From Lytechinus pictus (Eukaryota): a stretch of DNA of 64,000 nucleotides. Positions within the stretch are counted from its first letter, which is position 1, and every line of letters begins with the position of its first letter. This document shows, one piece after another, positions 457 through 49,617 of this stretch. A model generated the notes under the pieces. The model did no database searches, was not told where the DNA came from, and worked only from the letters and a program-made list of their open reading frames with translations. Position numbers and translations under genes: made by a program. Location of the stretch: assembly GCF_037042905.1 (NCBI RefSeq), contig NC_087250.1, positions 27,096,001-27,160,000 on the forward strand, read 5' to 3'.

Positions 457-2118
457 ATGGCGTCTAAGTTCCCAACAAAGAAGGGTGGAGAGGTCGAGCT
501 TCGTACAAGGAAAGGTCATGACATGACCTGGTCATGTGACAAGCATGGTGAGCCAATCAAATTTTACTGTAAGAAACACAAAATTCCTATTTGTCATCCA
601 TGCGCTACCAAAGATCACAGTCAGAAACCATGTGAGCTAGACGACATCGAGGATGTCATCTTCGAAAGGAGAAGACAGCTAGATGAAAAACGGCCAAAAG
701 TTCAAGGACTTCACAAACAATTGGAAGCCCTCAGCACGAAAATAAAGACTGTGTCAACGTCTGGAAGTACTCATCTTCGGACAATTGACAACAACATTCA
801 AGATTCATATCACGACAAGATCGATTCTGTTGGAGAAAAGGAGAACAGGATGATTAGGGTTATTAACGAGGAGGCAGATGAGGAAATAAGACTAGTAAAT
901 GAGAAGAGAGAAAAACGGATCAAGGATTGCAACACCGAGAGAGAAAATGAGCGACAAATCATCAAACACAAAGAAGCAAAACTTCTAGCAGATGCAAAGA
1001 AAATCAGCGAAGTTGTTGCTAAGAAGATCAAGGATCTGACTGATAAGAATCAGCATGTAATAAACACTGTAGAGAACATTGAATCAACCATCACACGTAT
1101 TAACCAACATGATGAAACATTGGTGAATGAAGCTCCTCAAGTACTTGCATCTATTGATGAAAATTTAAGTTTGAATGTTCATCAAGATGTTAGCGACTGT
1201 CTTGACCGAATACAGAATGAAGTTGAGAGAATGAAGTTTGTAGAGAGGGAAGTAGGTGGAGAATACTATGGTAGAATTGGTGGGTATATCGGTAAATGGG
1301 AACTTGTCAAGTCAATTCACATTCCATCGGTTGTTAATAACCCGTGTGCGCGTGGTTTAGTCAGTGATGATGAGATATGTGTGCAAGTACGTAACAGTGA
1401 CATGTATATTACAAACATCAACACTCAACACACAGAGAAAGTCATTGATGAAGGTGTGCGTGTTACATCATGTGCGCCCATAGACAGTAACGTAATAGTA
1501 TGTGGTAAGGGGACAGGTGATCGCACGGGTGACAGGTTGAATGGATGCATCACTCTCTATGACAGACAATGGAAGGTGATTAGAGACATCAGCATACCAA
1601 GGAATGGATACGCCGTATATTATAGTGTGTATGTTGATGTTGACAGGGATGGGATGATCATCGCTGGTCAGTTCAATCAGTCTAATATCTACGTCATCAA
1701 TCCTGCTGATGATAAGATAGTAAACACTATTACGATGCAGGGTAAGAAGGTGTGGGATGGGATACAAGCCTTGTCATCAGGTGATATCGTTGTGAAGACA
1801 GATTATAATAAATACACTGTCATCTCACGATCAGGAGAACGGAAGGCTGTCATACACTGTGATGAGTGGGTCTGGTCAGAGTGTCTCGTTGACAAACTGA
1901 CAGACACACTCTACATCGCGTACTGGGATAGAGCGCGTAATACATACGCAGTTGATCAGGTGTCACGTGATGGTATCATCCAGGCAAGAAGGATCGTGGA
2001 ATACGTGAAATCAGATCGCCCTCACCCCAGCAGTCATTGTCTTGTTACTCCTTCTGGTAACCTCGTAGGATGTGATGGAGACAAACTTCATCTTTACAAG
2101 AAGACTTTAATCTTGTGA
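457..2118 (+). CDS. B-box / coiled-coil / beta-propeller (TRIM-NHL-like, no RING in window) protein, single large exon
   Basis: 553 aa ORF with a B-box-type Cys/His pattern (CDKH-x7-CKKH-x4-CHPC-x4-H), a long E/K-rich coiled coil and a beta-strand-rich repetitive C-terminus. It follows a pyrimidine tract and candidate acceptor AG at 429-430; upstream exons may lie outside the window. Confidence 0.85.
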   Translation: MASKFPTKKGGEVELRTRKGHDMTWSCDKHGEPIKFYCKKHKIPICHPCATKDHSQKPCELDDIEDVIFERRRQLDEKRPKVQGLHKQLEALSTKIKTVSTSGSTHLRTIDNNIQDSYHDKIDSVGEKENRMIRVINEEADEEIRLVNEKREKRIKDCNTERENERQIIKHKEAKLLADAKKISEVVAKKIKDLTDKNQHVINTVENIESTITRINQHDETLVNEAPQVLASIDENLSLNVHQDVSDCLDRIQNEVERMKFVEREVGGEYYGRIGGYIGKWELVKSIHIPSVVNNPCARGLVSDDEICVQVRNSDMYITNINTQHTEKVIDEGVRVTSCAPIDSNVIVCGKGTGDRTGDRLNGCITLYDRQWKVIRDISIPRNGYAVYYSVYVDVDRDGMIIAGQFNQSNIYVINPADDKIVNTITMQGKKVWDGIQALSSGDIVVKTDYNKYTVISRSGERKAVIHCDEWVWSECLVDKLTDTLYIAYWDRARNTYAVDQVSRDGIIQARRIVEYVKSDRPHPSSHCLVTPSGNLVGCDGDKLHLYKKTLIL

Positions 2119-2695
2119 ATCATCCACACTATAAATAATAACTTGTGACATTTTGTAAGAAAAAAAAAATAGATCACTGATTACATTGTTTGTGCTTGAT
2201 TTCATTGTGTTTCCAATCCACTCTTTGAGTTGATTTTATCTTGAGAAAAAAAGAAGAACATGTTGTAATTAAATGGAAACGAAGATTGATGGATATTACG
2301 AATGTTAAGTAACAAGAATTTAAACCTCATAAATATCGATGTTTGATATAAAATGATCCTTATTCATTCATATGATAATGGACTTGAGGAGAATAGACAT
2401 AATTTAACCCCCCCCCCCCGGCCTATAAATCCTCTCGAAATCAGTTTATTACGCTTCCTAATCATTTGTACACATTATGGTCAATCCTTATATATATATT
2501 CATTCAGAACTCTTTAAATTAGGTATTCTAATAACTTGTTAAACCGTCCTTATTTTCTTTCATTTGTACATGTCATATCACACCTGATCCACTAATGTTA
2601 CTTGTTGTCTATATCAGTAAATGAAGTTATCTTTATACCATCATCATACCACATTGTCTACATGATCAGGATATAAGTATCTAAAGAGTCGATTG

Positions 2696-3118
2696 ATTTG
2701 ATAACATTCGGTAGAAATGATAACAATTGGTATAAATGATAACATTCGGTGGAAATGATAACATTCGGTAGAAATGATAACAATTGGTAGAAATGATAAC
2801 ATTCGGTGGAAATGATAACAATTGGTAGAAATGATAACATTCGGTGGAAATGATAACAATTGGTAGAAATAACAACATTCGGTGGAAATGATAACATTCG
2901 TTAGAAATGATAACAATTGGTAGAAATGATAACAATTGGTAGAAATGATAGCATTTGGTAGAACTGACAACATTCCGTAGAAATGATTACATTCTGTAAA
3001 TATGATAACATTCTGTAGAAATGATGACATTGCGTAGAAATGTTTTAACATTCAAAGAAATGGCAGCATTCAGTAGAAATGACAGCAATATTCGCTAGAA
3101 ATTATAACATTCGGTAGC
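2696..3118. repeat. Minisatellite, 19-20 bp unit (GTAGAAATGATAACATTCG / ...ACAATTG)
   Basis: About 20 tandem units, degenerating towards the 3' end. Explains the repetitive minus-strand ORFs. Confidence 0.9.
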
Positions 3119-3361
3119 AAAATATGATGTTATTTTGCGCCCTCTACATTCATCATACATCACTAGTGAGGTAAATTTGATTACATCATCTTATTATTTT
3201 CCCTGTCGGCCAATGGTATAACAATTTAAGAACCTGCCTTAATGGATATTAAAATCATTAACATTCAGTAACACACACGATGTACATTGATAAGACATGT
3301 TCATATTTTCCTATTAGTCAGAATTCGACATGACGAATATTTTGCGTTTGTGATTCAATAA

Positions 3362-3895: not shown

Positions 3896-4149
3896 ACAAC
3901 GTATATATTTATACCCAATCTCTTTTATATTCATATATCTCCTTTCTCTCTCATCAACGTATATATATATTTGCACGATCACCATTTTTTCTCTATATGA
4001 TTTTTATGGTTATAAAGTTTGGGGTTATATTTATTTTTGATAGTGATAATCATGTTGTCTAGATTCTAATCAGATTTATTGTAAAAATAATCAATATCGT
4101 GTAAATATCAGCTGTATTATTAATAATTGTGCAGATTGTTCTTTCAACT

Positions 4150-4960
4150 ATCGATCATTATGTAATGTACGAAAGAGCCTTTGCTAAAAATATAAAAAAA
4201 AGTTTGTATTATGTGTCGTAGTTCTTCAGTATTTCATGTGCAGATGATCAAAGTTTGTTTCATAAAAATGGACACTACACAAATATTAGGTGCGGTATAG
4301 CTCACAATCATTTCATAGTTCATAGAGTGATGTATGTAAGAAGCGCTTTTAGATTTTAATATGAATAGAAAAGGTATAAACTTTAATTCTAAAAATCTGT
4401 TTCGTTATCTCTTGTATAATCTCTGATTTTATATGTGGTACAAAGAATGCATTTTCTTGCTGGTAAATATACAGGTATAAAGGAAGTAGAGACCTTGTTG
4501 ATCAAAAAGAAGAGAATAGTCAAAACTTTGCCATGTTCACTTTTATGAAAAAGATGCTTATTAGAATGTCACCATGTAAAGTATTTGGAACTTTAGTGGA
4601 GATTTTCATTGAAGAAAAAAAGGGACTGTTTAGGATTGGTTATACAGCTTTTGGCAGTAGCGGTGAAACCGATGATGTGATGAAGGTGGGGGTGATTTCA
4701 GTACATGTGCTTAGAACAGTGAACATGTAAATATTACTTTGATTAGAAGAATAGAAAGTATATGTCTTACTTCTAATGAAATATATTTTCATATACACTT
4801 TATGTGAATTACGAACACTTCTTGAATAGAAAAAAAAAACAATGTTTGTGGATGTATCATGGACTTTAATCTATACGACATAATTCTAACCTACTTTGGA
4901 GCAGAAAATAGTCATGTGGAAATGGAAAGGAAATATCTTTATTATGGATAATAGTATTAA
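4150..4960 (+). mobile_element. Possible heavily decayed L1/Tx1-like LINE 3' fragment
   Basis: Broken peptide remnants (LECHHVK, LLLMKYIF) resemble the C-terminal region of L1-group ORF2. Many stops and frameshifts; boundaries approximate. Confidence 0.3.
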
Positions 4961-5289
4961 TAAGTACATTTCAAGAAAGGTTTGTCAATGCAATATATAG
5001 TTGTATACAGATTACTGATCCAATTATCAACCGTTCTGAATAAATATCTAAGATTTTAAATTGGTTGGAATCTTTGTAGGGTGTATTTTGAAGTCATCAT
5101 CATGGTTATGAGGAGGGTGTATTTTAATGCACATATGATTATGTCATTTTGTAATCAAGTAATTTTGTCAGCATAACCGAAATTAAATGTCAAACCCCCC
5201 AAAAAATCTACATCCAGTTCATATTTCTAATTTACAAATGAGTATATCTGACATGTAGGACTGATTAAAAATAATATATAGAACGATGG

Positions 5290-5710
5290 TGACAGACGAA
5301 GGATAAAAGGATGAGATATATAGAAAGAGGGAGGGGTTGGCAAAGTGGTTGGGAGTGAGAGAAAAAACAATGGAGAGACGAGGAAAGTAAGAACGGAGAG
5401 AGAGAAAAAAAGATACAAATAAAAGGATAAAGAGATGGAAATGAGAGGGATGGAAAAGATGAGAGAGAGGAAGAGAGAGAGAGAGAGGGGAAGGGAAAAT
5501 GGAAGAAGGGGAGAGAAAAAATGGAGAGACAGTGAAAAGAGAGACTGGGAAAGAGGGGGAGAGAGAGAATAGAAGTGGATGAGTGAGGGGGAGAAATTGA
5601 GAGACAAGGGGAAAAGGAGGAATAAGAGAGGGAGAGAGAGAGGGGGGGGGGGGCAATTTAAAGAACTACCGAGAGACAAGAAATGATAAAGAGAGATGGG
5701 GGATGGAGGT
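5290..5710. repeat. Purine-rich (GA) low-complexity tract
   Basis: Almost exclusively G/A on the + strand. Confidence 0.85.
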
Positions 5711-7450
5711 GAATTTGTAATTGAGTTTGTATTAGAATTTTCCTTTCTTATGAAACAAAGTATAAAATTACAAAGTTGGATATATCACAAACTATGTCAA
5801 TCATAGTAAGTCATAACAAAATTGAAGAAAGGGTGAATTTAATCTACGTAGATAGAATTGGCTTCGTCGAAATTAAGTAAAAGGAAACAACGCAGGGGCT
5901 TGCCAAGAAAGATTGAATTTAAGAGATAGGGAAAAGAAGGAATCGCAGAGAAAAATGAGTGAGAGTGAGAGAGAGAGAGAGAAAAGAAGAGGAAGAAAAC
6001 AATCCGAACGCTTCTTACTTTTTGTATAACCAGGAAATGTAGTACGATTATATAATATTGAATTATATTAAATGTGACCATTATGATACTTCAATTTTTT
6101 CAAAGAACTACACCATTGTCATATTGAATTCATGTACAATGCTTCAACAAAATAAAGCATCAAAACATGATATCACAATACAAGAAATACATTTGATTAT
6201 ATACATGTGGGGATGAGACATTTTCAGCTCACCTCTTGAATATTCATCAGGACATCCATAGAACTGCCTAGTAATGCAAATCTTTAAAATTCAATAACTT
6301 CGTAATTTGTTACCCGATTTTGATCAAATTTTCAAAATTTTGCTTTTTGAATTTTATTATTTTTATTGAGATATAAACATCTCCAGCCTGGACCATCCCT
6401 TTAAACATGACCATTATGTTACTTCAGTGTATGCAAAGAACTACACCACTGTCATGACTGTCATATTAAATTTATGTTCAATGCTTCACCAAAGTAATAT
6501 ATCAAAATATAATAACACAATAAAAGAAATACATTTAACTATAAAATTATACAGAATACAGAAGATTATGACAATGTCAATTAATGAAAGTGAAATATGT
6601 AAAATAACCTGCATAAAAAAACTGAGCTTGTTATGTCTGAAGGTTCCTAAATATAGTTGGGATGCTGTCTCTGTTTTCATGGTACTTCCTCAATGGGGAA
6701 GGGGGCTTCAAGTATATCTAACAAAATATAATATATGCATAGACAAACCTAGCAACTCACCTGGTATATTTAATCACCCAATGAAAGTGATTTTCTACTT
6801 CATTAGATATTAGAAGCCCCAGTATTTTTGGCCTCCGGAAAGTGGCAATGATCTGAAGTTGGATATCATCTATTGGGGGAAATCCCCTTCGTATGTTCTT
6901 CCATTCTATATCAAAAGATGGCGCTCTTTCAAGTCTTTATTACACTCACATTGAAGCACTTGATAAAGATGTGGTTTTGGGCATTAAATCAGTTAAAATC
7001 AGAAGCTATATGCAATCTACATTTGAATTGAAATGAAACGATTAATTTTAAAAGTAAAGACAGAGAGGGAGAGGGAGGGTGAGAGCTGGCATTTTTTTTT
7101 CTGAAAAGTTGTAAAATTATTGATCGAATAAGATATTCATTGATCATTGTAAGTGTAAATACACATGTAAAACACGCTACAATATATTTTCTATCTTTCC
7201 CAAACCATGCCAACCAGGCTTATAACAATAGTGCTGGGTATATTGTTTTCAATTTTGACAGAATGATTACCAAGATGTTTAGAGAAAAATGCAAGCCACT
7301 GAGGCTGGACTTGACTCTCTCTTTTTTTTTTACAACATTGCTTGCTATATGAACGTTGAGGTTAAGAACAGTTGTTTAAAAGTTCAAACACGTTTTTAAA
7401 GTCTTAAACAACAGAGTTCGATTTTTAAAAATAAATCTAATATGCAATAT

Positions 7451-9905: not shown

Positions 9906-9937
9906 AAAGAAAAATATAAGAAAAAATATGATATTTA

Positions 9938-10570: not shown

Positions 10571-10573
10571 AAA

Positions 10574-10592: not shown

Positions 10593-11000
10593 GTGGTTTT
10601 GAGAGTAGATGACCCGTTTTTGCATTAGGAACCCCCTCTTGAGGACGTAACTGCTATCTGATGGAACTTGGTTGATGCAGGACGTCATACTGGATGTAGA
10701 GTGGAAGGTTAGACTTACACACCCGCTGGATTTCAGATGCGCAAACTGGATTGATGCACATCTTCCTAGGAGTGATACAGTTATTGAGATATGAACTTTA
10801 AAGCATTTTTACAGATCCAAGCTTCCAAAGAACTTTAAATGAACTTTAATTTTTTTGGTAGTATTTTGAAGTATATTGTGATCTATTTTTACATGTATGT
10901 TTATATACACAGTTTGTATTAGTACATTTATATTGTTTCACAGTTTGCATTAGTGCATTTGTATCGTCTCATTTGTATCCTTGCAGCCAATTGCAAAATC

Positions 11001-11924
11001 ATGGCAGAGAAGAAAAGAAGTCCAAGTCCTGGTAGGGAATTGGTGGAGGAGGAACTTCGAAAACTTCAGGGAGAACTGCATCAGTTGAAATTACAGGGAG
11101 CAAGTCAAGCAAGTCATAATGAAAAAGTACCACCCGTTGTGTATGTATCTGCAGAGCGTCAGATAAGGAAATTTGGAGGTGACGAGGGGATTGATGAATG
11201 GATTTCAGATATTCAGAGTTTATTGGCAGACAAGGTCGCCTACCAAACCCCCAAGGAAAGGTTGCAGACTGTGATCAGACATACCCATGGTGCAGCTCGC
11301 ATGGAACTTGTCAGTCGGGAAGATATCGGTAGCGCAGAGGATGCATTCCAAGTTCTGAGGTCAGTTTTTGGAGAAGTAGGAAGTCAAGCGTCCCAGAAGC
11401 GAAAGTTTTTCAGTCGCCTGCAGAAGAGAGGAGAAACATTAATAGAATATTCCCATGAACTGATCCGATTGTTGCAGACTTGGAGAGGAGTGGGAAAGCA
11501 GGATCGAGAAGAGACCCTCATCTCACAATTCATTGAGGGAGTTTCTGATGCTGATCTTCGTCGGGAACTTCTTCGTCGATCTCAAGAAAACCCAGCACCC
11601 TTTGTGGCCCTCCGAGACTGGGCTGTACAGTGGGAACGGCAAGGCTCCAACAGCAGAAGGTCAGATAGAGGTCAACAATGGTTAGAGTCTCAAGAGCAGG
11701 GAGTCAGCTCGACTGATAACCAGAGCATCTCTCTCGTATTAGAAGCCCTTCAACAACAAAATAAACTGGTATCTGCCCTCCTTACCCAGCAGGAAGAGCA
11801 AAGCAGAGTACTGAATAGCCTTTTAGCTCAGAGTCGTCCACGTTGGCCTCAGGGTTGTTTCCAGTGCGGAGCCAAGGACCACATCAGACGTAATTGCCCT
11901 CGCACACGCAATTTAAACGAATAA
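11001..11924 (+). CDS. gag: Gag with CCHC zinc knuckle
   Basis: ATG at 11001; QKRGETLIEY capsid-like motif; CFQCGAKDHIRRNC knuckle. Confidence 0.92.
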   Translation: MAEKKRSPSPGRELVEEELRKLQGELHQLKLQGASQASHNEKVPPVVYVSAERQIRKFGGDEGIDEWISDIQSLLADKVAYQTPKERLQTVIRHTHGAARMELVSREDIGSAEDAFQVLRSVFGEVGSQASQKRKFFSRLQKRGETLIEYSHELIRLLQTWRGVGKQDREETLISQFIEGVSDADLRRELLRRSQENPAPFVALRDWAVQWERQGSNSRRSDRGQQWLESQEQGVSSTDNQSISLVLEALQQQNKLVSALLTQQEEQSRVLNSLLAQSRPRWPQGCFQCGAKDHIRRNCPRTRNLNE

Positions 11925-12985
11925 AGCCCGCTGCAGGACAGGAAGTAGCGGGCGTGATACCATCGTTCAGCCCCGAACGAATCCTGAAGAAGGCCATTGG
12001 AAAGTGTCCTTATAGTGAGGTTCAAGTGCAGGGGGTTGCAGTTTCCTGTCTAATGGATTCAGGTTCACAAGTTTCAACCATTACAGAGACATTCTTTCGA
12101 AAGAACTATGGTACTCTCAAGTGGCAAAATATTCATTTCCTGAAATTGACAGCAGCTAATGGACTCTCCATTCCATACTGTGGGTATGTTGAGTTGGATG
12201 TTGTTATAGGAGAACACTACTTACCAGAGATGGGCTGGCTTGTGGTGAAGGAGTCAGGTGATGAAGATACCCGTAGTAGGAAAGAGAAACATCCTGGAGT
12301 TATCGGAAGTAATATTATTGAGGTGCTGCGAGAGGCTGTCCAGTCAAGTGCAGTAGAGTCAGGACAGGTGGGACAGAATCCTTTATCGAGCCTGTCATTC
12401 TACACGGAGGCAAATATGTCAGATATCACAATGACTACATCCACTGTAACAGCAGAGAGCAATTTTCAAGGATGTACTAGGGTAATGGGGAAGCAGCCCA
12501 GTCTCATTCCTGCAGAGAGCACAAGGACTGTTACTTCTTCCGCTCGTGGGCATGATGAAGTCATGTTAATTGAAGAACTTGAAGGGAGTTCCCTTCCTCA
12601 TGGGCTATCGGTGCTGCCTTCATTAGTCTGTTCCAGGCATGGACAGATCCCAGTCACAGTTAGCAATTTCTCCCGAGAGGATCAGTACCTGTATCCACAC
12701 ACCCCGATAGCAAAGATTGACTTGCCTCAAGAGATTCAGAATTTTCCAAGGAATTCTGTAGAAACAATTTCAGTCGAAGAAGTGATGGTGCTCCAAGGCC
12801 ATACCCCAGATATTGTCAAGTCCGAGGAGTCTGAAATCAAAGATGTATTTTCCAAACTTGACATTGGTGACATAAGTGTAGAGGAGAGAAGTATAGGCTA
12901 CAATCACTTATCACACAGCATGATGAAGTGTTCAGCAGGGGAGATCATGACATGGGGTACTGTGATAAGATCAGACATTCAATAA
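11894..12985 (+). CDS. pol: Pol part 1: aspartic protease
   Basis: CLMDSGSQVSTI active site and VIGSN. Frameshift near 12900 before RT. Confidence 0.9.
   Translation: MPSHTQFKRIKPAAGQEVAGVIPSFSPERILKKAIGKCPYSEVQVQGVAVSCLMDSGSQVSTITETFFRKNYGTLKWQNIHFLKLTAANGLSIPYCGYVELDVVIGEHYLPEMGWLVVKESGDEDTRSRKEKHPGVIGSNIIEVLREAVQSSAVESGQVGQNPLSSLSFYTEANMSDITMTTSTVTAESNFQGCTRVMGKQPSLIPAESTRTVTSSARGHDEVMLIEELEGSSLPHGLSVLPSLVCSRHGQIPVTVSNFSREDQYLYPHTPIAKIDLPQEIQNFPRNSVETISVEEVMVLQGHTPDIVKSEESEIKDVFSKLDIGDISVEERSIGYNHLSHSMMKCSAGEIMTWGTVIRSDIQ
11912..11953 (+). promoter_or_regulatory. Programmed -1 ribosomal frameshift signal
   Basis: T TTA AAC in the gag frame, 7 nt spacer, 9 bp stem GCCCGCTGC/GTAGCGGGC. The protease ORF is in the -1 frame. 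Confidence 0.85.
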
Positions 12986-15900
12986 AGACAGTGGATGATA
13001 CTCCAATCAAGTTGCCTTACAGACGGGTTCCACCAAGCCAGTGGGAGGCAGTTAGAGATTTCTTGGAAACGCAGTGTTCCATTGGTGTCATCCGTCCAAG
13101 TACTTCACCGTACGCTGCTGCCATGGTTTTGGTAAAGAAGCCTAATGCAAAGATCAGAGTTTGTGGTGATTTCCGACTGTTGAATGCAAAGACTATCAAA
13201 GACGCACACCCACTCCCACGAGTTGATGAGTCATTAGAGGCATTGAAAGGAGCCAAGTACTTTGCATCCTTAGATCTGGCGCATGGCTTTTGGCAGTGTG
13301 CTATTGAGGAGACTGATGTACCCAAAACTGCATTTCGAGCTGGTCCTTGGGGTCTCTTTGAATACACTCGAATGCCCATGGGTTTGTGCAATGCCCCTGC
13401 CACATTTTCCAGGTTAATGCAAGCTTGTCTGGGAGATGTCAATCTACAGAGTGTAATAGTCTACCTGGATGACATTCTGGTCTTCGGCAGCACTTTTGAA
13501 GAAATCTTGGATAGACTAGATATGGTCTTGCATCGCCTTCATGCATTCGGACTCAAGATCAAGCCAGAAAAATGCCACTTAATGAAGAAGGAGGTTAAGT
13601 ACCTGGGCCATGTTGTGTCTGAAGCAGGAATTAGTACTGATCCAGAGAAGGTATCTGCTGTCAAGTCGTGGAAGATTCCTATGACGGAAAGTGAGCTGAG
13701 GTCATTTCTTGGGCTAGCCAGTTATTATCGCCGTTTCATACAGGGCTTTGCCTCGATAGCGAGACCTCTTCATGCTCTCCTGGGACCCACCAACAGGCGA
13801 TTGGCTAAGAAGAAAAAGAACAGACCTAGCAGTCATGACAGTCGGCCATTTCAAGACAAGTGGACGGATGAGTGCCCCCAAGCCTTTGAGGAAATGAAAA
13901 GATGCCTTACATCTAGTCCGCTGTTGGGATATCCGGACTTCAAATCTCCGTTCATTGTTGAAACGGATGCCAGTTTTAGTGGACTAGGTGCTGTTCTGTC
14001 ACAGAAACAGAACAGCAGGACGGTAGTCATAGCCTATGCCAGCCGCTCCCTACGTCCAGCAGAACGCAATGATGCCAATTACAGTGCTATGAAGTTAGAA
14101 CTGTTGGGACTGAAATGGGCGGTTACAGAGAAATTTCGGGATTATCTACTTGGAAACACTTTCACAGTACTTACCGACAATAATCCTCTTGCCTACTTAG
14201 ACACCGCCAAATTAGGAGCCACGGAAATGCGATGGGTTGCGCAGCTTGCTCAGTTCAACTTCAAGGTGCAATACCGTTCTGGACGAACCAATCGTCATGC
14301 CGATGCCCTGAGTCGCAACCCTTCCCCATCTATTGGCAATACCCTGGAACACGATGAGACAGATGTCTTGTCTCACTTGGTGACAAGCAGCGAACTACCT
14401 CAAGAGTTGAAGGTTAGGGTGGAGGAATTGATGATGGAAGCTACATCCACACAGATTCACTCAACTGTCACGATTGACGAAGTGAGAACCCGATCGAGCA
14501 ATATCAATCCGGTTGGATGCCAATCCACTCTTCCAGGTTTCACTCATACATATATCTGTCGGCTCCAGGAAACGGACCCAGACATTGGTCACCTTCTTCG
14601 ACTAAAGAAGTCACTGCAGAAACCTAGTGGAAACATTCTTCACTCACTGCCAAAGAATGTAAGACTCTATGTTCGAGAGTGGGACCGAATTGTCTGCATT
14701 GGCAAAGTGTGGGTCCGGGAAGTCCAGTTCCGAGATCAATTTGTTCAGCAACTTCTGCTCCCTACGTCTTTGAAAGGAAGAATCCTAGAAGAGTTGCATG
14801 ACAATCTTGGCCATCAGGGAGTAGACCGTACGTTGTCTCTATGCAGGAGCCGCTTCTTCTGGCCAGGCATGTCAACAGATGTAGAGAGATATTGCCAAAA
14901 CTGCCATCGCTGCCTGTTCGCCAAGGCCAAGCCGAAAGTCCGCCCAGCTATGGGTAGTATCATTGCCCAGAAGCCGCAAGAAGTAGTAGCAATTGACTTT
15001 ACTGTATTGGAGCGCTCAGCAAATGGCTTTGAGAATGTTCTAGTGATTACAGATGTCTTCACTAAGTTTACCCAAGCCATACCCACCAGAGATCAGAAGG
15101 CTAGGACAGTGGCTGAAGTCTTAGTAAAAGAATGGTTTGTGCGTTATGGTGTACCAAGAAGGCTCCATAGTGATCAAGGACTGGACGTTGTTTTGAGGCT
15201 GATATCATACAGGAACTTGGTCGTATGTATGGAATCAGAAAGAGTCGAACCACCCCATACCATCCAACTGGTAATGGACAAGCGGAGCGATTCAACAGGA
15301 CCATGCATAATCTTCTCAGAACCCTGGAAATTGATGAGAAACGGAGATGGAACCAACATATATCGCTGAAATTGTCTTCGCTTATAATGCAACACCACAT
15401 GCAAGCACAGGATATACTCCCTACTTCTTATTCTTTGGTAGAGAACCTCAACTTCCCATAGATCAGCTTTTCAGACCTCCAAGCCAAGGTGGTAAATCAG
15501 CTAACATAGATGAGTGGGTGTCTAAGCATCAGAGTCAGCTAAAGAATGCTTGGGAGAGAGCTGCCGGAAACTTGGAGAAGGAAGCACGACGACGTCAAAA
15601 GATCCAAAAGACTAGTGCAAAGGATGTCGAACTTGAGGTTGGCCAGAGAGTGTTGCTACGACAGCAAGCTTGGACAGGAAGGCACAAAATCCAAGACATT
15701 TGGCAAGGAAACCCATACCGCATCCGAAAGAGACTAAACCCAACTGGACATGTGTATGAAATTGAACCAGTCAATGGTTCTGAGAAAACCAAAGTGGTAA
15801 ACAGAGTTGACTTATTGATTATTCCAGAATCAATCCCAGAATCAATTGAATTGGTCCCCCATTCCAAGCCTAGGACTCTTCCTACTTCAATATCCATGCC

Positions 15901-16006
15901 GGATAAACCGGATGATATCACTAATGTGCAGTGGAATGTAAGTGACATTGCCCAGGCTCTCAACCACTCACAAGCCCCACCCTCATTTCCAGAAAATTAT
16001 CAGCCT
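12928..16006 (+). pseudogene. pol: Pol part 2: RT, RNase H, integrase (frameshifts near 15180 and 15355)
   Basis: RMPMGL, YLDD, TDAS, ELL, TDN, HHCC zinc finger, [22 protein letters not shown] and [14 protein letters not shown] continue in shifted frames. Confidence 0.93.
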
Positions 16007-31872: not shown

Positions 31873-32242
31873 CGAAGTAGAGAGAGAGAAAAAGACAGAG
31901 AGATGGATAGATAGATAGAGAGAGAGGGGGAGAGATAGAGAATTTGAGAGATAGATATATGTTAGATAGATAAAGAATGAGAGAGACAGAGAAGAGCGAC
32001 AAATTAACAGATAGATAGATACTGCAGTTACATATAGATAGATAGATAGAAGATAGATTGATAGAGAGAACTAGAGAAAGACTATGAATAGATAGAGAGA
32101 GAGAGATAATTTGAGAGGGAGAGAGAGAATTTGAGAGACAGACAGACAGATGGATATAGAGAATTCGAGGGATAGATAGACGGATAGAGAGAAATAGAGA
32201 GAGAGAGAAAAGGACAGACAGATGGATAGATAGAGAGAATTT

Positions 32243-32278
<36 letters not shown>
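31785..32278. repeat. (GATA)n / (GA)n / (TA)n microsatellite complex
   Basis: Direct reading. Confidence 0.9.
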
Positions 32279-32282
<4 letters not shown>

Positions 32283-32436
32283 CCTTTGTTACACATTTAC
32301 TTTGTTATTTCGACCTTATTTGTATGGTTTGTTCTGTTTGTTTCAATGCATTATAGGCCTGATGAAGGCCCCATTGGCCGAAAGCTTGTAATAAAGAGAT
32401 ACATGGAAGCTACGTCTTGCGTTGAATTATTTACAA

Positions 32437-32437
<1 letters not shown>
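32279..32437 (+). mobile_element. Probable Penelope-like terminal remnant carrying a hammerhead ribozyme-like core
   Basis: ~160 bp between two (TA)n runs; CTGATGA-A-GGCC-ccatt-GGCC-GAAA-GCTT at 32359-32387, then AATAAA. Confidence 0.6.
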
Positions 32438-32483
<46 letters not shown>

Positions 32484-35400
32484 TATTGCAATAAAAACTA
32501 TCAAAATACAATCACAAGCAGTCAAAGACTTAAATAAGTGAATGTTTACATACAAATAGAATCATAACCAAATATAAAGTAAAAATTATTAATAAATATC
32601 AAATACAATACAAATTCATACAGATGAAAAAAAAAGTACTACAAAGTGTCACCAAAGAAGAAAAAAGCGGTATGAAAGATTAAGAAGAAAGAGGAGAGAG
32701 AAGAGGAAAGAGGTGAGAGAATTAAGGGAAAAAAATCTGGATAAGACAAAGAGAAGGGAAAGCAAGAGGTGGAATTTGAAAGAGAATAGGATGCAATCTT
32801 CAGAAAAAAAACTCTTTATGCAATACAAGACATTTAACAATGGTCACAAGTAAATAAAGTAGTAATTGAATCGAATCGAGCACAAAAAAGGGAAAAGTAG
32901 AGCTGAGGAAATGTGTTGATATTGCACATGAGTAGATAAATAGATGGAGAGAAATAAAAGAGAGACAGATGGATAGATAGAGAATTTGAGAGACAGAGTA
33001 GATAGACAAATTGACAGATAGAAATATCATGTAGTTCCATAGATTGATTTATAACATAGATAGTGGATAGACAGATATGATAGATATAAGGATAGATATA
33101 ATATGAAAAAAAAGTAATTATGTGTTTTATTTTTCAATATTTTAGCTATTATTCGTTTTCATTCATATAAACGATCATGTGTGATAAAGTAAAACAAAAT
33201 CATGGAGCCAACGTAGTTCAGCGGAACAACCAAAATACAGAGACTGAAGCTTTTGGTCTATAAGCTCAGCTGCATTTGCACGTATGTTCTGCGGATATCT
33301 TCGGTGGGGACTTTTGGATCGCGCGCCCAGCTGATTATGTAAACAAACGTAGACGTAGACTCTTCACTAGTCGCTTTGTGGCAATTTTTCCGGAAAATGC
33401 CTTCGCCAGGGTGTAAAACGGAAACGCGCTATCGGCCGGAGCGGCCTTGCCCCCATTCACTGTTGGTTGATTGACAGTTCTCGCTTGCGTGTCCGTTACG
33501 ATCTCAACGCAGAGGGAGGCATACAATTTTATTTTCAAATCGGGAAGTCACAGTAATTTGGGAGATCGTCTAGTAGACGGGTTCCAATATAATCACATTT
33601 TCCCACCTACTAACAACTTTTCATTAAAAATATAGATGACTTCCAGGGTTTCTTAGAACAAATACATAAACTCAGAAACATAATTCATCTTAATTTGAGA
33701 TTTTTTTAAATCAGCTTCTCACAATGTTAAACGATCCCTTTAAGTACTTTCAAATTCCAATTGAGCAAGCCAGAAAGCGATCCCAACATTTGGAAATGGG
33801 GACTGGATAGTGCAATGCATGTGTGTAGTGGGATGCAACTAAGTGATGAGAAGGAGACAATGATATGGGAGAAAGAAATAAAAGAAATCATGACATGAAA
33901 TGAAAACATAAATAGAGCATGTTAGAGATAATCATGATAATAGAACAAAATTGTGAAATGACGATGGTTAACCCCTGCTTGTGTATAGATAATGCTATTT
34001 TAGAGATTCCCTTATATGGTATTTACGAATTTCCGCAAGATTTTGGTAGGAACCTTCTTAAACATAATAATTATATACAAAGAACCATAAATAGAGATTA
34101 GATAGGTATGATATAAAATTAAGTTTGGGGAAGCGTGATTTGAATCACAATGAAAATACACATTTGTTTGTATTTGGAAGGGGGGGGGGGGTTATTTACA
34201 AGAGCCTCTGTCATTAAACTATTCAAGGGTCAAATGATCGTACATATTTCATTCCATTAGATTCTAACTAGACATGCTGCCACTCAATGAGACGGAATAA
34301 ATTAATAATAATTAACGTTGTAGAAGCAGAGTAGAACATTTCTTTTAGATTATTCCTGAATATATTATGCAAAGTGTTCACAAGTGAATTCTTGACAAGC
34401 AAATGCAGTATTTTTATGGCTCAATTTGAGCCTGAGATAGATTTGTTATGGCTCAATGCAGTATTTGTTATGTATTAATCCATCCAAGCCATCAAGACAG
34501 ACACCTACTCCAGATAATCTTGGGTATTTCGTTAGAGTCTGTTGACTGGTCACCTATTTATAACAATAATGATGCAAACATGTGCTTCAATAACTTTCTG
34601 AATATTTTTATTAGGGAATTAGATAAGCATATTCCAAAAGTAAAAGATAGACAAACTAACTACAAAAAATCACCGAGATTTCCTTGGATATCTAAAGCAC
34701 TTTTGCGTTCAATTAATAACAACAAAAAAATTATATTATAATTCAAAATTTAAAGGCACTCTTCAGGCAAAAACTAAATACACCACACATACGAATACTT
34801 TAACTAAGGCAATACGTTTGGAAAAGAAAAGAAATTTCACTGGTCAAATAATTCTGTATAAGCACGACATTCAAAATACATGGCAAGTTCTCAAACAAGC
34901 CATGAATCTATCCTAATAAGTCCGATATAACTTCAATCATGGAGCTATTAGGTAAAAGCTCTATGCTTCAATTAGGTCTAACGGTGATATTATTGGAGAT
35001 CCTGAAAATATAGCTAATATTTGTAATGATTATTGTTCATCTATAGGAACGAACCTTGCGAGAGAAATCCCCCCTTCAACAAAACATTTTCATGTTTATC
35101 TAGGTACACCTAATTCTAGTTCAATATTTTTCACTCCCGTAGTCCAAAAAAGATATTACTGATTAAATTTAATTTTAATAATAAAAAAGTCCTGGTTATA
35201 ATGATGTCAATAACTTTATTTTAAAAGGTATAATATCTGAAATTGTCGATCCTTTGACATATTTTTAACATTTCTCTAACCTCCGGGCAAGTCCCTGATC
35301 GCATGAAAGTTGTCAAGGTCATTCCATTGTACAAAAAGGGTGACAAGTTAAGTATCAGTAACAATCGCCCTATTTCTTTTGAATCATTCTTGTCCAAAAT

Positions 35401-35879
35401 TTTAGAAAAAAAGTGGTTTATAGTAAAATAATTGATTTGTTAACATCTCACAATATTTTTTCTAACTTTCAGTTTGGATTTAGAGAAAAACATAACACAG
35501 AACATGCATTATTGAATTTCGTTGATAAAGTGGCCCACGCTTTTGATAATTGCTCACATCTAGTTGGCATTTTTCTGGACTTCTCCAAGGCCTTCGACAC
35601 CATTAACCATGATATCTTATTACATAAACTTTCTCATTATGGGGTGCGCGGGAAGGCCTTGGAGTGGTTCAGAAGCTACTTGTCCGACAGACGTCAATTT
35701 GTATATTTGAATGGTCATGCATCCAACATGCAATACATTAATTGTGGATTCCCGCAAGGCAGTTTGTTAGGCTCTTTATCATTTATCATTTATATTAATG
35801 ACTTTTGTAAATCATCTGATGTCCTTTCGTTCATACTTTTTGCAGACGATTCTGATATATTTTATTCCCATAAAAATCC

Positions 35880-36389
35880 GGTTACACTTCGTAATTCCGA
35901 AGGTTCTTTATTCCGAAGGTTCGTAATTCCGAAACACATAAATTGCCTATACCTCGATGTTCGTTAATCCGAAAACGAAAAAGGGTTCGTTAATCCGAAC
36001 ATTTGTGGCGTAATTCCGAAGGTTCGTTAATCCGAAAAGGAAATGAGAGTCGTAATTCCGAAGGTTCGTTAGTCCGAAAACGAAATGAGGTTCGTAATTC
36101 CGAAGGTTCGTTAATCCGAAAACAAAATGAGGCTCGTAATTCCGAAGGTTCGTTAGTCCGAAAACGAAATGAACAACGAACCTCATTTCGTTTTCGGATA
36201 AACGAACCTTCGGAACAACGAACTTTATATCGCTTTCGGATTAACGAACCTTCGGAACAACGAACCTCATTTCGTTTTCGGATTGTCGAACTTTCGGAAC
36301 AACGAACTTTATTTCGCTTTCGGATTAACGAACCTTCGGAATATCCGAACCTTTGGAATAACGAAGCTTCGGAATTACGAATGTATACG
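35880..36389. mobile_element. Palindromic MITE built of TTCCGAAGGTTCGTTAATCCGAA subrepeats
   Basis: Subrepeats flip orientation near 36170; AAAAATCC duplicated at 35872 and 36390; removal restores the LINE frame HKNP-YTLV. Confidence 0.88.
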
Positions 36390-36467
36390 AAAAATCCATA
36401 TACCTTAGTAAATACTGTTAATAATGAACTTTTAAAAATCACACAATGGATAAAATCCAACAAACTA

Positions 36468-36974
36468 CGAACGTACAATAAATGCTGCACATTATTCAAA
36501 ATCCATGTCATTTTCACCAAAATTTGCAGAGTTGTAGAGGAAGGTATACCTAAGAGGTACAAACATTAAAAAATAGGGGTTCATGTGCTTGTTTTTAAAC
36601 TATCAGCATTTTTATTAGAGCAAATGTGCTTTTTAAAACACCAAAAATGCGCCGAATGCTTTGTATCTATGTGAAGAAAAAATCAAAACCACTCTACCAT
36701 TTATTCGAACTCGGGGTAATATTCGTGATTCTTTGCAGCACTGCAGAGTAAAGTATTTTTAAATCGTAGAGAATTTGTTTTTGAATGGTCCATGGAATAA
36801 TGCCATTTTTAGCTTCATGAAATAACGCATCGGATATGCAGTTAAAGTGCAGGAGATGAGAAAAATCAGCTCATACCTGGAACTAATTAATCACCTGTTC
36901 ATCCATTGTGACGTCAGCGCGCAGAGTGTAAACTATGCGCAGATCATAATGCGCACAAACATAACTGTGCAACG
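36468..36974. mobile_element. Unclassified ~500 bp insertion in the LINE
   Basis: Interrupts the LINE between SNKL and (S)LNLL; only weak terminal inverted similarity. Confidence 0.5.
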
Positions 36975-36999
36975 TCCTTAATCTACTTACAACTAGATA

Positions 37000-45789: not shown

Positions 45790-46895
45790 ATTCTGACACA
45801 ATTGTTAACAAGGCAAAAAGAAAACATAGTAGTACAATCAAAGTTCAAACTTTTCAAACAGTTCATATAGAAATGTAGAAGTCAAATCTATGTGTAAAAT
45901 TTAGGGCCTATATATCATCTTCTTGGAAGGGTTATAACGTATAAGCTCACATTTTAATGAGTCGCCTGAAATTTGAGGCTGCGTAATTTTTTTAACGATT
46001 TTGAATTATTGTCTTGTTGCCTTTCAATCTGCATGTTCATTCAAAGTTTCAAACGTAATAGCTATATATCCTACCTGTGTAACTTCTGTTAAATTAATGA
46101 GAACGTATAAAATGCATTTTGCTTAAAACAACCTCGCTTTTATGCACCATCGAAATTAGAAAGGGCCTAAACATATGCATTTATTAATGGCTCACGAAAT
46201 TACCCGTTATATGCAAATTCACCTATGACATACAGATGAGTGAGATGACATGCTTTCAAAACAAACTTGTTAACTTTAGAAAAATAGGATTAACCGATTT
46301 GGAGAATTATGACGAAAGAAATTTGTCAAATTAAAGTTGATGCGTTACTCAGTTATGTAGAATAGAAATCCCAAGAATATTTGTCTGTGGTATAACTGAC
46401 CTTTGAACTTCTGTTACTTTTTTTTCAGAAAAACTCTGCATAACAATATCAAATGTAGCATTCTGAAATAATTGTTCACTTGGCAAAAAGAAAATATAGT
46501 ACCATCAAAGTTCAATTTTTTTAAACAGTTTTATAACATTCGCTTACATTTTAATGAGTCGCCTGAAATTTGAGGCTGCGTAATTTTTTTTTATACGATT
46601 TTGAATTATTGTGTTGTTAGCCTTCAATCCGCATGTTCATTCAAATTTTTAAATGTACAAGCTGTATATCCAACCTGTTTAACTTCTGTTAAATTAATAA
46701 GAACAGGTATAAAAAAAAACATTGCTTTTATGCTCTATAAAAATTAGAGAGGCCTGAACATATGCATTTATTCATGGCTCATAAAATCACCCGATATATG
46801 CATATTCACCTATCACATACAGATGAGTGAGTTAACTGCTTTCAAAACAGACTTGTCAACTTTAGAAAAAAAGGATTAACTGATTTTGAGAATTG
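45790..46895. repeat. Diverged tandem duplication (~600-670 bp period)
   Basis: ~45790-46310 matches ~46460-46895 with one indel of about 80 bp. Confidence 0.85.
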
Positions 46896-47187
46896 TTTTA
46901 TTTATTTTTTTTTGTTGTTAATCTGTGTTGTCATTTTTTATTGATAATGTATTTGAATAAATGTATCGATTATTTTCTGGAGATATACCGTTTCTTTTGT
47001 CCATGCCCTTATTTAGGGGAGGGGGGGGGGGGGTGACTGTAAAGGTCATCCCCACTTGATTTTTTTTTAAAGGATTTATCCCCCCTCCCCCATCCGCTCA
47101 GGATCGACACCCATGATTATTACTAATGGCATTAAGTTTGATTTTTAATTGTTCCTTCTACAGGTAACCCCAAAGTAGGCAGAAGCC

Positions 47188-47464
47188 ATGACGGAATTTG
47201 ATAATCTCCTGATCAAAGTGGCTAAACAAGTCTTCCTAAACTCGGAAATCGACACATTGGGAAGAGAGCTTGGATTTACTCCTACCGATGTTCAACGTCA
47301 TATAGCAACTAATCTCAAAACACAGAACGTTACTTGGGATGGAACTCTTAACATGCTCCGGGATTGGCGTAAAAGTCAAGAAATTGCAACAGAGAGAGAA
47401 GGTCTGAAGACTGCTCTGAAGAAAGCAGGTCAAATTCGTCTGGCTGATGAACTCTTTCCTCTAA
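47188..47464 (+). CDS. Death-domain exon of a DD-coiled-coil-beta-propeller gene
   Basis: LGRELGF..DVQRH..MLRDWR..LKTALKKAGQIRLADEL death-fold pattern; acceptor TTCTACAG at 47163; in-frame stop before GCCATG; phase-1 donor GTAAGA at 47465. Confidence 0.82.
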
Positions 47465-48037
47465 GTAAGAAAAAAAAATAAAGTGTACAAATCTTATTTA
47501 TTCTGATAAAAAGTTTCAGGCCGCTTTTAAAAATTCATTTCCTGGTATTTTGGTATTAGTACACCGTGCTAATTTATTGTTCTTCTTCTTCTTCTTCCTC
47601 CTTCTCTTCTTCTTCTTCTCAGTCCCTTCTTTTCTTCACCCTTTTTTCTCTTCGTTCCCCTTTTCTTTGCTCCGCCAACGACGGGCCTCTTCTACTATTG
47701 ATCCTTGAAGAAAGAAAATAATTTATTTTCCTAACTTCCCTTCGTAATTCTGTTTAATTCTCAATAAAAATTATCATTTTCTAACTTTTTGTAATGATTT
47801 AATCTTAAGACATCCGGTTAGAGAGGTGTAGTTGTCGAGCACCCGCCTTAGACTGTTAGAAGTTAAAATAGATTGAGTGTTTAAAAAAAAATGGCCCTTC
47901 TTTCTTCTTATCAAGAGAGTAACGTCTTTGAGAAGATAAAAGCACATCCCCTAATTGGCGACCGCTGGGAAATCAGAGGCTAAAACATTCACATTTAAGT
48001 ATTAAATTTAATATTCTTGTTATTTTTTCCGATGTAG

Positions 48038-49617
48038 GTTACTCTGTATCTCAGACTGAAATACATGACAGAGATGTCAAAGCAAAGCGACGCAAAGTCG
48101 AAATTCCTTCTCCGAGTGTCAAAGAAGACGACCAAAAACAACGTGACCGAGACGACACTGGAGACGACATGAGGAAGCAAGTCGATGAGAACATGGACCA
48201 TGATGAGAAACGGGCCATGTTAGAGAAAATTAAACAACCGCGCAAGATAGTTGAATCGAAACTTACGGACCTTTCGAATTCATCAAGTAAGCATCTCGAT
48301 ACAATTAAGGGTGATATACAAGAGACATTGGAAGATATTAAAGGTAATTTTAATGATATAAAACGGAAAAAAAATAAATTGATTAGGGATATTGACAAGG
48401 AGGCAGATAAGGAAATACGAGCAATAAAAGAAAGGCGACAAAAACAGATCGAAGCCTATAAAGGTGAGATAGCACGGGAACAAAAAATAAGCGAAGACAA
48501 ACAAGCTAAATTGTTACCATGCTTGTCAGACACAGATAAAATCAGCGAAATAGTTTCCGACAAGATAATGGATCTTACTGGTAAGATTCCGGATGCTATA
48601 AAGGATAACCAACATGATGAAACATTGGTGAATGAAGCTCCTCAAGTACTTGCATCCATTGATGAAAATTTAAGTTTGAATGTTCATCAAGATGTTAGCA
48701 ACTGCCTTGACCGAATAAAGAGTGAAGTTGAGAGAGTGAAGTTTGTAGAGGGGGAAGTAGGTGGAGAATACTATGGTAGAGTTGATGGGTATATCGGTAA
48801 ATGGGAAATTGCCAAGTCAATCCACATTTCATCGGTTGTTAATAGGCCGCGGGTGCTTGATCTGGTCAGTGATGAAGAAATATGTGTGCAAGACGTACGT
48901 AACAAAGACATGTATATTACAAACATCAACACTCAACACACAGAGAAAGTCATTGATGGAGGTGTGTCGATTACATCTTGTGCGCCCATAGACAGTAACG
49001 TTAAAGTATGTGGTAAGGTGAGAGATTATCGCACGGAAGACAGGTCGGATGTATTCATCACTCTCTATGACAGACAATGGAAGGTGATTAGAGACATCAG
49101 CATACCAAGGGATGGGAAGGGTAATAATGTGTATGTTGGTGTTGACAGGGATGGGATGATCCTCGCTGCTCAGTACAATCGGTCTAATATCTACGTCATC
49201 AATCCTGCTGATGATAAGATAGTAAACGCTATTACGATGCAGGGTAAGGAGGTGATGGGTGGGATACAAGCCTTGTCATCAGGTGATATCGTTGTGAAGA
49301 CAGATAATGATAAATACACTGTCATCTCACGATCAGGAGAAGAGAAGGCTGTCATGCACTGTGATGAGTGGGACTGGTCAGAGTGTCGCGTTGACAAACT
49401 GACAGACACACTCTACATCGCGTACAGGGATGGGGATGAAGCGAGTAATACATACGCAGTTGATCAGGTGTCACGTGATGGTTTCATCCAGGCAAAGAAG
49501 ATCATGAAATACGTGAAATCAGATCGCTCTGACTGGGTCAGCCCTTGTCTTGTTACTCCTTCTGGTAACCTCGTAGGATGTGATGGAGACCAGCTCCTTG
49601 TTTACAAGAAAGTGTAA
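48038..49617 (+). CDS. Linker / coiled-coil / beta-propeller exon (paralogue of 457-2118, no B-box)
   Basis: Acceptor GATGTAG at 48037, phase 1, open to the stop at 49617; spliced product 618 aa. Confidence 0.85.

Follow-up and report, generated by a model that had tools for sequence, protein, structure and literature searches.

TRIM-NHL proteins are known as conserved, RNA-binding regulators of development, and sea urchins are a classic case in which innate receptor families (TLR, NLR and SRCR) have been expanded instead of an adaptive immune system. We analysed a 64,000-nucleotide stretch of the genome of the sea urchin Lytechinus pictus (contig NC_087250.1, here C6, positions 27096001-27160000, forward strand), referred to throughout as the window, which carries two genes, A and B, that share a cassette encoding a linker and an NHL-type beta-propeller. 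The cassette belongs to a large, tandemly arrayed family, and its propeller is under diversifying selection at residues that the fold model places on one face. Among the closest described systems, TRIM5alpha and the finTRIMs are tandem-duplicated TRIM families in which positive selection acts in the surface loops of the C-terminal B30.2 domain, the remainder is conserved and copies recombine (PMC2657112). For the HNWD genes of Podospora anserina (HET-E/D/R), PMC2873952 describes a WD40 propeller with a positively selected interaction surface, a homogenised scaffold and exchange between loci. In Strongylocentrotus purpuratus, a 2026 study reports 140 'tripartite motif-containing' annotations and the induction of TRIM-like genes in coelomocytes (PMC13043383).

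A cassette shared by two genes and its family

Gene A occupies a single open reading frame, and gene B is assembled from two exons that are described further below. The features on which the comparison of the two genes depends are these:

457..2118, plus strand: coding sequence of gene A, a single open reading frame of 553 aa with B-box, helical/coiled-coil region, conserved linker and NHL propeller (from the reading frame and its translation)
529..621, plus strand: B-box zinc finger of gene A (Pfam PF00643, E=1.5e-5)
634..1100, plus strand: putative helical/coiled-coil region of gene A, a charged, heptad-like sequence between B-box and linker
1101..2102, plus strand: shared cassette, copy A, comprising the linker (about 1101-1287) and the NHL propeller, with sharp identity borders against copy B
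1288..2115, plus strand: six-bladed NHL-type beta-propeller of gene A (from an AlphaFold2 model and structural comparison)
48606..49610, plus strand: shared cassette, copy B, comprising linker and NHL propeller, the latter from about 48790

An initial annotation of this stretch had drawn attention to two near-identical segments, 1101-2102 and 48606-49610, which were said to differ by about 65 amino acids against about 10 synonymous changes, with the differences falling in periodic patches. Both segments are present as placed. A blastn comparison aligns 851-2102 of the window with 48380-49610 at 83.6% identity, and the cassettes themselves are about 90% identical at the DNA level. Their borders are sharp: in 60-nt windows the identity between A and B is 0.30-0.72 upstream, 0.77-0.98 from about 1102 to 2100 and 0.25-0.45 past the stop codons. 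The 5' border, at 1101/48606, is the point at which a shared unit of linker and propeller joins stalks and heads that differ between the genes. Our recount across 337 aligned codons (1090-2115 against 48595-49614) gave 71 amino-acid differences, 11 codons with synonymous changes only and 8 gap columns, which is near the earlier count. All of the patches named in that annotation were recovered, and the differences are clustered, with a variance of 2.39 per 8-codon bin against 1.27 in permuted data, a level reached by 1 of 5000 permutations.

The contrast of 71 to 11 nevertheless makes the case look stronger than it is, since non-synonymous sites outnumber synonymous ones about 3.7-fold (794 and 217, respectively). 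By the Nei-Gojobori method the non-synonymous and synonymous divergences are dN=0.117 and dS=0.098, giving a ratio (omega) of 1.2 with a binomial p of 0.30. The A-B pair alone is compatible with neutrality as well as with constraint and positive selection acting together, and the evidence for selection is therefore that of the family. Of the 68 A-B differences found in 334 aligned columns of the family codon alignment, 22 fall on the 33 sites identified as selected at the family level (Fisher p=1e-9).

That the cassette belongs to a multigene family, as had been suggested, is clear from a six-frame search of the 812 Mb L. pictus genome, which returned 121 matches. About 21 loci lie between 27.02 and 27.95 Mb on C6 (0.93 Mb), all on the plus strand; sixteen of them are full-length and free of stops, and the other five are broken or fragmentary. 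Elsewhere, closer relatives are found at C6:22.9 Mb, C6:26.1-26.3 Mb and C16:5.2 Mb and on contigs C9 and C8, and more distant arrays, at 35-39% identity, on C13 (6.3-6.7 Mb) and C6 (1.2-1.8 Mb). In a homology search the gene A protein was 100% identical to a database protein and about 87% identical to its paralogues, which are named 'uncharacterized protein LOC... [Lytechinus pictus]'. Homologues in Lytechinus variegatus and S. purpuratus are nearly all named 'uncharacterized', 'B box-type domain-containing' or 'TRIM5-like'. From 30 loci we aligned 28 paralogues, leaving out two (L023 and L029) because they are broken. In the alignment, a scaffold that hardly varies is broken up by about a dozen hypervariable patches, and it is preceded by a 65-residue linker that is almost invariant.

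Fold of the propeller and selection on its loops

The propeller was modelled with AlphaFold2 on a 47-sequence alignment covering 1240-2115 of the window. The model of gene A has a predicted local distance difference test score (pLDDT) of 86.4 and a predicted template modelling score (pTM) of 0.85, and its 24 strands form six four-stranded blades. In an exhaustive structural comparison with VIA-align, the top six matches are all TRIM-NHL proteins (Mei-P26, Z 24.0; Brat, 23.8; TRIM2, 22.8; Lin41, 22.4; TRIM71, 22.1; NHL-2, 21.7), aligned with a root-mean-square deviation (rmsd) of 3.0-3.4 over 243-264 residues at a sequence identity of just 11-16%. The highest template modelling (TM) score in Foldseek, 0.68, is that of the NHL domain of Thin. 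Seven-bladed G-beta chains, which head the Foldseek results by E-value, were rejected given that the model is six-bladed and that NHL chains have the higher TM and Z values. The NHL-type propeller proposed in the initial annotation is thus confirmed at the level of the fold, though the Pfam NHL model (PF01436) finds no match in gene A or gene B at E<=1.

Selection was analysed with our own likelihood code for the GY94-F3x4 codon model, using a fixed topology and relative branch lengths scaled from an IQ-TREE nucleotide tree. The site models contrasted were M1a and M2a, a more conservative choice than M7 and M8. Across 338 codons of the 28 paralogues, omega under M0 was 1.54 and the log-likelihood rose from -9135.0 under M1a to -8736.9 under M2a (twice the difference, 2dlnL, being 796). 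M2a assigns 35% of sites to omega 0.17, 53% to 1 and 11% to 8.3, and gives a posterior above 0.95 to 33 sites of the propeller. In gene A these correspond to:

1339..2031 (span), plus strand: the 33 codons of gene A under positive selection, grouped in 12 patches (M2a posterior >0.95)
1339-1353, 1387-1392, 1459-1461, 1510-1527, 1546-1548 and 1609-1626, plus strand: selected patches 1-6 of gene A
1672-1677, 1747-1761, 1795-1806, 1870-1878, 1918-1947 and 2020-2031, plus strand: selected patches 7-12 of gene A

Recombination among the paralogues is evident, both from a test modelled on the pairwise homoplasy index (PHI), in which 0 of 1000 permutations were as low as the observed value, and from the four-gamete test, which 30% of site pairs fail. 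As recombination can inflate tests of this kind, four controls were added. When the analysis was restricted to 264 columns, each separated from the nearest gap by more than two positions, 2dlnL was 600, and when the alignment was divided into four segments, each with its own tree, the values were 93.5, 153.8, 185.4 and 166.4. Hypervariability is seen at the same positions in two other species, in 18 proteins of L. variegatus (Spearman 0.44) and in 21 of S. purpuratus (0.45), with p about 1e-17. This allowed a set of sites to be defined independently, as the top 12% by entropy in the 21 S. purpuratus proteins (42 sites) with L. pictus unused, and to be evaluated on 14 disjoint pairs of L. pictus genes, a design that is robust to recombination. 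Pairwise maximum likelihood (ML) gave an omega of 3.92 at these 42 sites (likelihood ratio test against 1: 2dlnL=43.9, p=3.5e-11) and 1.09, which is not significant, at the other 295. The corresponding Nei-Gojobori ratios of non-synonymous to synonymous proportions (pN/pS) were 1.49 (p=0.0012) and 0.86.

An internal control is provided by the N-terminal half of the same genes. In the B-box and coiled-coil half of 17 of the 28 genes, omega is 0.35, in keeping with purifying selection, M1a equals M2a and there are zero selected sites, which shows that our code does not manufacture positive selection. The two distant arrays also give a strong signal, with a 2dlnL of 217 and an omega of 11.1 on 5.9% of sites for the C13 array (12 genes), and a 2dlnL of 124 and an omega of 10.9 on 7% of sites for the array at 1.2-1.7 Mb on C6 (8 genes). 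If only substitutions are considered, a 1659-nt frame has a probability of 0.14 of remaining open at a distance (d) of 0.03, and of 0.05 at d=0.05. Terminal branches have a median of 0.058, yet the majority of close copies are intact, and the open frames of the family are maintained beyond neutral expectation. Diversifying selection on the propeller, as the initial annotation had it, is therefore supported, with omega above 1 and with the site models, the pairwise test and the internal control in agreement, and it is confined to the putative recognition domain.

Synonymous divergence appears 2.5-3 times higher at the hypervariable sites, by both the Nei-Gojobori (NG86) and ML estimates. At codons that keep the same amino acid, synonymous change was seen in 14 of 236 (5.9%) variable codons against 145 of 3524 (4.1%) others (p=0.18). 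We treat the excess as mostly an artefact of multiple hits or a product of patch exchange, and targeted hypermutation of the patches was set aside because the excess is not significant at these amino-acid-conserving codons.

With regard to where the selected residues lie, all 33 are in or beside odd-numbered inter-strand loops in the secondary-structure string of the model. The 22 that are strictly within loops are all in odd loops, which hold 66 of the 117 loop residues (binomial p=3.7e-6). Since loops of one parity in an antiparallel meander lie on one face, the selected sites would occupy a single face of the propeller, an assignment that follows from strand alternation and not from model coordinates. 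This agrees with the earlier expectation of variable residues gathered on one face rather than scattered or buried. Every fourth loop among the odd loops is long, and if this periodicity is taken together with the NHL motif, the variable face is probably the 'top' face, made up of the D-A and B-C loops; our parse of the propeller sequence onto the NHL repeat pattern likewise presumes that motif. In each of the distant C13 and C6 arrays, 11 of 11 mappable selected sites, placed by hand, fall in the same loops, with exactly one per odd loop in the C6 array.

The composition of the selected sites is also distinctive. They are enriched in Trp (7x), Phe (4.6x), Cys (2.3x), Tyr (2.2x) and Arg (1.8x), and on average hold 7.5 different residues per position against 2.45 at other propeller positions. 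Pairwise identity among the paralogues is 26% at these sites and 83% elsewhere, and the 28 genes carry 28 distinct combinations.

Variable heads and the first exon of gene B

Upstream of the cassette, the B-box of gene A (residues 25-55, or 35-65 in the open reading frame translation P0001) scores 25.5 bits in a Pfam scan, above the cut-off of 24.1. In gene A no RING family was matched at E<=1, and the mere 24 residues N-terminal of the B-box leave no space for one. The scan matched no domain in gene A other than the B-box. The coiled-coil label that we give to 634..1100 is suggested by its position after the B-box and by its composition.

The long frame of gene B (47932-49617, plus strand) has neither a sensibly placed start codon nor a B-box. 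The N-termini of the paralogue models at NCBI differ from that of gene A, and tblastn then located an upstream exon at 47188-47464, which is 98% identical to the N-terminus of the L. pictus protein P0101. Neither this exon, nor the lack of a RING in gene A, nor the non-significance of the A-B pair had been noted in the initial annotation. Joining the two exons restores a protein, ...ELFPLSYSVSQTE..., that matches P0101, and we read gene B as join(47188..47464, 48038..49617) with a predicted product of 618 aa. Its parts are:

47188..47464, plus strand: gene B exon 1, predicted Death domain; ATG at 47188, ends in phase 1, GT donor at 47465
47465..48037, plus strand: gene B intron, GT...AG, read from the sequence; AG acceptor before 48038
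48038..49617, plus strand: gene B exon 2, with putative coiled-coil region, linker, NHL propeller and stop (from the reading frame and the joined translation)
49614..49619, plus strand: splice-donor-like hexamer GTAAGT, a perfect hexamer with the TAA stop of gene B inside it

The best Pfam match of exon 1 is Death (PF00531), at 18.7 bits against a cut-off of 22.6 (E=0.0019, profile positions 15-82 of 86). Its AlphaFold2 model has a pLDDT of 92.2 and six helices (3-14, 18-27, 32-42, 51-62, 69-79 and 83-89). The closest structural matches are the Death domains of FADD (Z 12.0, rmsd 2.2, 87 residues aligned), PIDD/RAIDD (11.8), RIPK1 (11.3) and ankyrin-G (11.2), and CARD, PYD and DED chains score lower (Z 7-8.7), bearing in mind that values below about 13 are to be read with caution for helical bundles. 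A profile search of PDB sequences with this exon found the ankyrin-1 and Fas Death domains at just E 0.3-0.5, and single-sequence searches of the PDB with the Death-like exon and with the TIR-like stretch described below gave chance-level matches only. Given the six-helix fold, and with Death domains as the nearest solved folds, exon 1 is predicted to encode a Death domain. Genome-wide, the exon is matched 106 times, with many of the matches tightly clustered on contig C8 and 49-52% identical (for example C8:23.5-42.3 Mb, with others on C19, C26 and C37; loci L036-L060); the genes that these other matches head are perhaps Death-domain NLRs, although this is a guess on our part.

The heads of the family vary. 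Among the 30 loci, 18 have the canonical B-box motif (C-x2-H...C-x2-C...H), 2 have a variant B-box, 5 have a long exon that begins at a splice acceptor and has no B-box, and 5 are truncated or broken. The paralogue P0089 (locus L013) has a Death domain of the gene B type followed by a TIR-like domain, the latter with a Pfam TIR_2 match at E=0.001, below the cut-off, and with TIR proteins as 10 of 10 named hits in the ESM Atlas (structural TM 0.64-0.76). P0088 has the TIR-like part alone. At the locus labelled L017 or L035 (C6:27947498-27950539), there is seemingly a Death-domain exon about 2 kb upstream as well as a variant B-box in the long exon, and this paralogue would seem to have a Death, B-box and NHL architecture. 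Pfam found no NACHT or NB-ARC match in gene A, gene B, P0088, P0089 or P0101. In neither the gene A nor the gene B protein does any 19-residue window reach the hydrophobicity expected of a signal peptide or membrane segment (maximum Kyte-Doolittle values of 0.68 and 0.76), so a cytosolic location is predicted, and is likely, for both.

The 3' end of gene B departs from the rest of the family, with the C-terminus ...KKV-stop in place of the usual ...KKTFIL. The gene model P0015 of L. variegatus reads on past the same ...LLVYKKV end into ZU5 exons, and the GTAAGT at the stop of gene B may permit an alternative 3' extension. Exons resembling those of P0015 do lie downstream:

53230-53598, 53990-54265, 61002-61118, 62793-62987 and 63582-63740, plus strand: downstream exons that match the C-terminal extension of P0015 at 77-88% identity

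A ZU5 domain is encoded among them (E=2.2e-5), and the first exon has an acceptor at 53228-53230 and, at 53233, an ATG in good context. A direct splice from the terminal donor of gene B to the ZU5 exon at 53231 was rejected because the phases are incompatible. It is possible that these exons form a separate ZU5 gene, or that they are alternative 3' exons of gene B reached through an intermediate exon, as in the L. variegatus model.

Elsewhere in the window, a Ty3/gypsy-like long terminal repeat retroelement lies between genes A and B (10923-16009, plus strand) in four consecutive frames with PNMA/gag-like, RVT_1, RNase H and integrase domains; it is frame-split, with no single intact polyprotein, and has a GC content of 0.42-0.46 against about 0.33 in its surroundings. 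A reverse-transcriptase fragment (RVT_1, E=1e-24) is found at 35383-35964 on the plus strand, and beside it, at 35990-36569, are two overlapping 191-aa frames on opposite strands that have no Pfam match. Two stretches, 4001-6000 and 32001-34000, show a GC skew of 0.44 and 0.25 and an AT skew of 0.15 and 0.19, respectively, the rest of the AT-rich intergenic DNA being unskewed, and they are probably strand-asymmetric simple repeats.

Possible function and comparison with known systems

Taking the fold, the arrays and the pattern of selection together, we judge it reasonably probable that genes A and B are members of a large, tandem, lineage-expanded sea urchin family of cytosolic, modular, receptor-like proteins that serve as sensors of non-self. 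Each protein consists of a head, a helical or putative coiled-coil stalk, the near-invariant 65-residue linker and the six-bladed NHL-type propeller. The head is variable, being mostly a B-box without a RING, as in gene A, and otherwise a Death domain, as in gene B, a TIR-like domain, or Death and TIR-like domains together. The variable face of the propeller may bind diverse non-self or danger ligands, and the stalk may dimerise or multimerise the protein, as it does in TRIMs. Binding could then be coupled by the head to signalling or cell death, either through Death-domain or TIR assemblies or through higher-order assembly driven by the B-box. New specificities would arise by tandem duplication, by recombination or gene conversion among paralogues and by positive selection on the loops, and the same recombination or gene conversion may also shift the propeller cassette between different heads. 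The label of 'pattern-recognition' family that the initial annotation gave to these genes would fit such a scheme, and we use it with the same reserve.

A number of points weigh against this view. Known TRIM-NHL proteins are developmental RNA regulators and are not known as immune sensors. The A-B pair, taken by itself, gives no significant sign of selection, and pairwise omega is only 1.09 outside the 42 hypervariable sites. Together with the 53% of sites that M2a places at omega 1, this means that constraint is weak over much of the propeller in young copies. The codon models were run in our own implementation with branch lengths from a nucleotide tree, and not in codeml or HyPhy, and the recombination present in the family can inflate the likelihood ratios of site models. 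Three of the 28 sequences (L002, L003 and L024) have N-terminally truncated frames and may be pseudogenes. The Pfam matches to Death and TIR fall under the curated cut-offs, and the terms 'one face' and 'top face' depend on a secondary-structure string, loop periodicity and the NHL motif in place of coordinates. With regard to expression, the raw counts for five S. purpuratus homologues in coelomocyte RNA-seq are 0-22 reads per sample, and a single-cell cluster marker table lists four homologues (PMC13043383 supplements); these counts are low, come from a comparison of coelomocytes alone, and show low-level transcription in the immune cells of a relative and nothing more.

If the family does sense non-self, a broader proposal follows, which we put forward tentatively. 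Echinoids may hold an unrecognised major class of cytosolic innate receptors in which the diversified module is an NHL propeller, and not a leucine-rich repeat (LRR), B30.2 or WD40 domain, and in which this module is recombined with interchangeable heads (B-box, Death, TIR, or Death plus TIR). Were this so, each genome would hold more than 100 such genes as a combinatorial repertoire linking sensors to pathways, which would be comparable in principle to the NLRs and to TRIM5 and the finTRIMs and would have arisen independently. A further expanded family in sea urchins would add a new structural solution to recognition, namely an NHL propeller wired to Death, TIR-like or B-box heads. It would also illustrate how domain shuffling can assemble combinations of receptor and pathway, and would extend the roles of NHL domains beyond developmental RNA regulation. 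Three laboratory species have the family, and one of them, L. pictus, is genetically tractable. We found no description of it, or of a hypervariable NHL face, in the full-text literature, a search whose coverage left out most subscription journals.

Of the alternatives, the one that survives best is intragenomic conflict or endogenous regulation, with the variable NHL face binding RNA or protein from retroelements or from other selfish elements, or diverse cellular mRNAs in the manner of Brat and LIN-41. The nearest folds are, after all, RNA-binding TRIM-NHL domains, retroelements are interspersed in the array (the Ty3/gypsy-like frames at 10923-16009 and the reverse-transcriptase fragment at 35383-35964), and the enrichment of Arg and aromatic residues at the selected sites would suit nucleic-acid binding as well. 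However, Death and TIR-like heads are signalling and cell-death modules that are not known in RNA regulators, and we consider this explanation unlikely. It overlaps in mechanism with the sensing of non-self, and on the evidence the selection could stem from either pathogens or transposable elements.

One might also envisage a role in allorecognition or self-incompatibility, in which cell death would follow an encounter with conspecific non-self, as for the fungal HET-E/D/R NACHT-WD40 genes. The signature seen here matches that of the Podospora hnwd genes (PMC2873952), in which loci recombine, the scaffold is homogenised and the interaction surface of the propeller is positively selected, and Death-domain heads do exist in the family. 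The diversity that we observe, however, is between paralogues. A cytosolic location would suit systems based on cell fusion, yet we know of no cell-fusion biology of this kind in sea urchins, and we regard allorecognition as improbable.

That there has been no adaptive diversification at all, and that relaxed constraint in decaying duplicates, gene conversion homogenising the framework and misaligned indel-rich loops have together produced the pattern, would be in keeping with an omega of about 1 for the A-B pair and for 'framework' sites, with the recombination detected, with several broken copies and with a synonymous divergence that looks 2.5-3 times higher at hypervariable sites, but it is very improbable, and neutral decay plus gene conversion is largely excluded, given an omega of 3.9 (p=3.5e-11) at sites defined in another species and assessed by pairwise comparisons only, a signal that persists without near-gap columns and with segment-specific trees, an omega of 0.35 in the N-terminal half of the same genes, open frames retained far above neutral expectation, the recurrence of the same loops in three arrays and three species, and a synonymous excess that is unconfirmed at amino-acid-conserving codons (5.9% against 4.1%, p=0.18).

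Returning to the preferred reading, that of a family of non-self sensors, its members can be set beside the systems with which we began. They resemble the TRIM-NHL proteins (Brat, Mei-P26, Thin/TRIM32, TRIM2/3, LIN-41/TRIM71 and NHL-2) in combining a B-box, a putative coiled coil and a C-terminal six-bladed NHL propeller. They differ in that gene A has a single B-box and no RING, in the silence of the Pfam NHL model, and in that the B-box is replaced in some sea urchin members by a Death or TIR-like head. TRIM-NHL genes are also few and conserved, whereas here there are more than 100 genomic matches in tandem arrays and a hypervariable face. Because it has no RING and no sequence-level NHL match, the family is not one of canonical TRIMs, and because it has no NACHT, it is not one of NLRs.

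With TRIM5alpha and the finTRIMs the family shares tandem expansion, selection in the loops of the recognition domain and recombination (PMC2657112). Those proteins are vertebrate RING E3s with a B30.2/SPRY domain, whereas the present ones are from an echinoderm and have an NHL propeller, no RING, and Death or TIR-like heads among their number. The likeness to HNWD lies in a variable beta-propeller recognition module coupled to a cell-death or signalling head (PMC2873952). There, the WD40 propeller is built of near-identical repeats that vary in number, whereas here the six NHL blades are unlike one another; and HNWD proteins have a NACHT, whereas here a coiled coil takes the place of the nucleoside triphosphatase (NTPase) as the central module. 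Like the TLR, NLR and SRCR families of sea urchins, and the 'TRIM-like' genes of S. purpuratus, this is a large, lineage-specific echinoid family, but we found no paper that singles out a B-box/Death/TIR-NHL family or its hypervariable face. On this comparison we rate the family as a TRIM-like one for innate recognition that has diversified, its recognition domain being unusual and its heads interchangeable.

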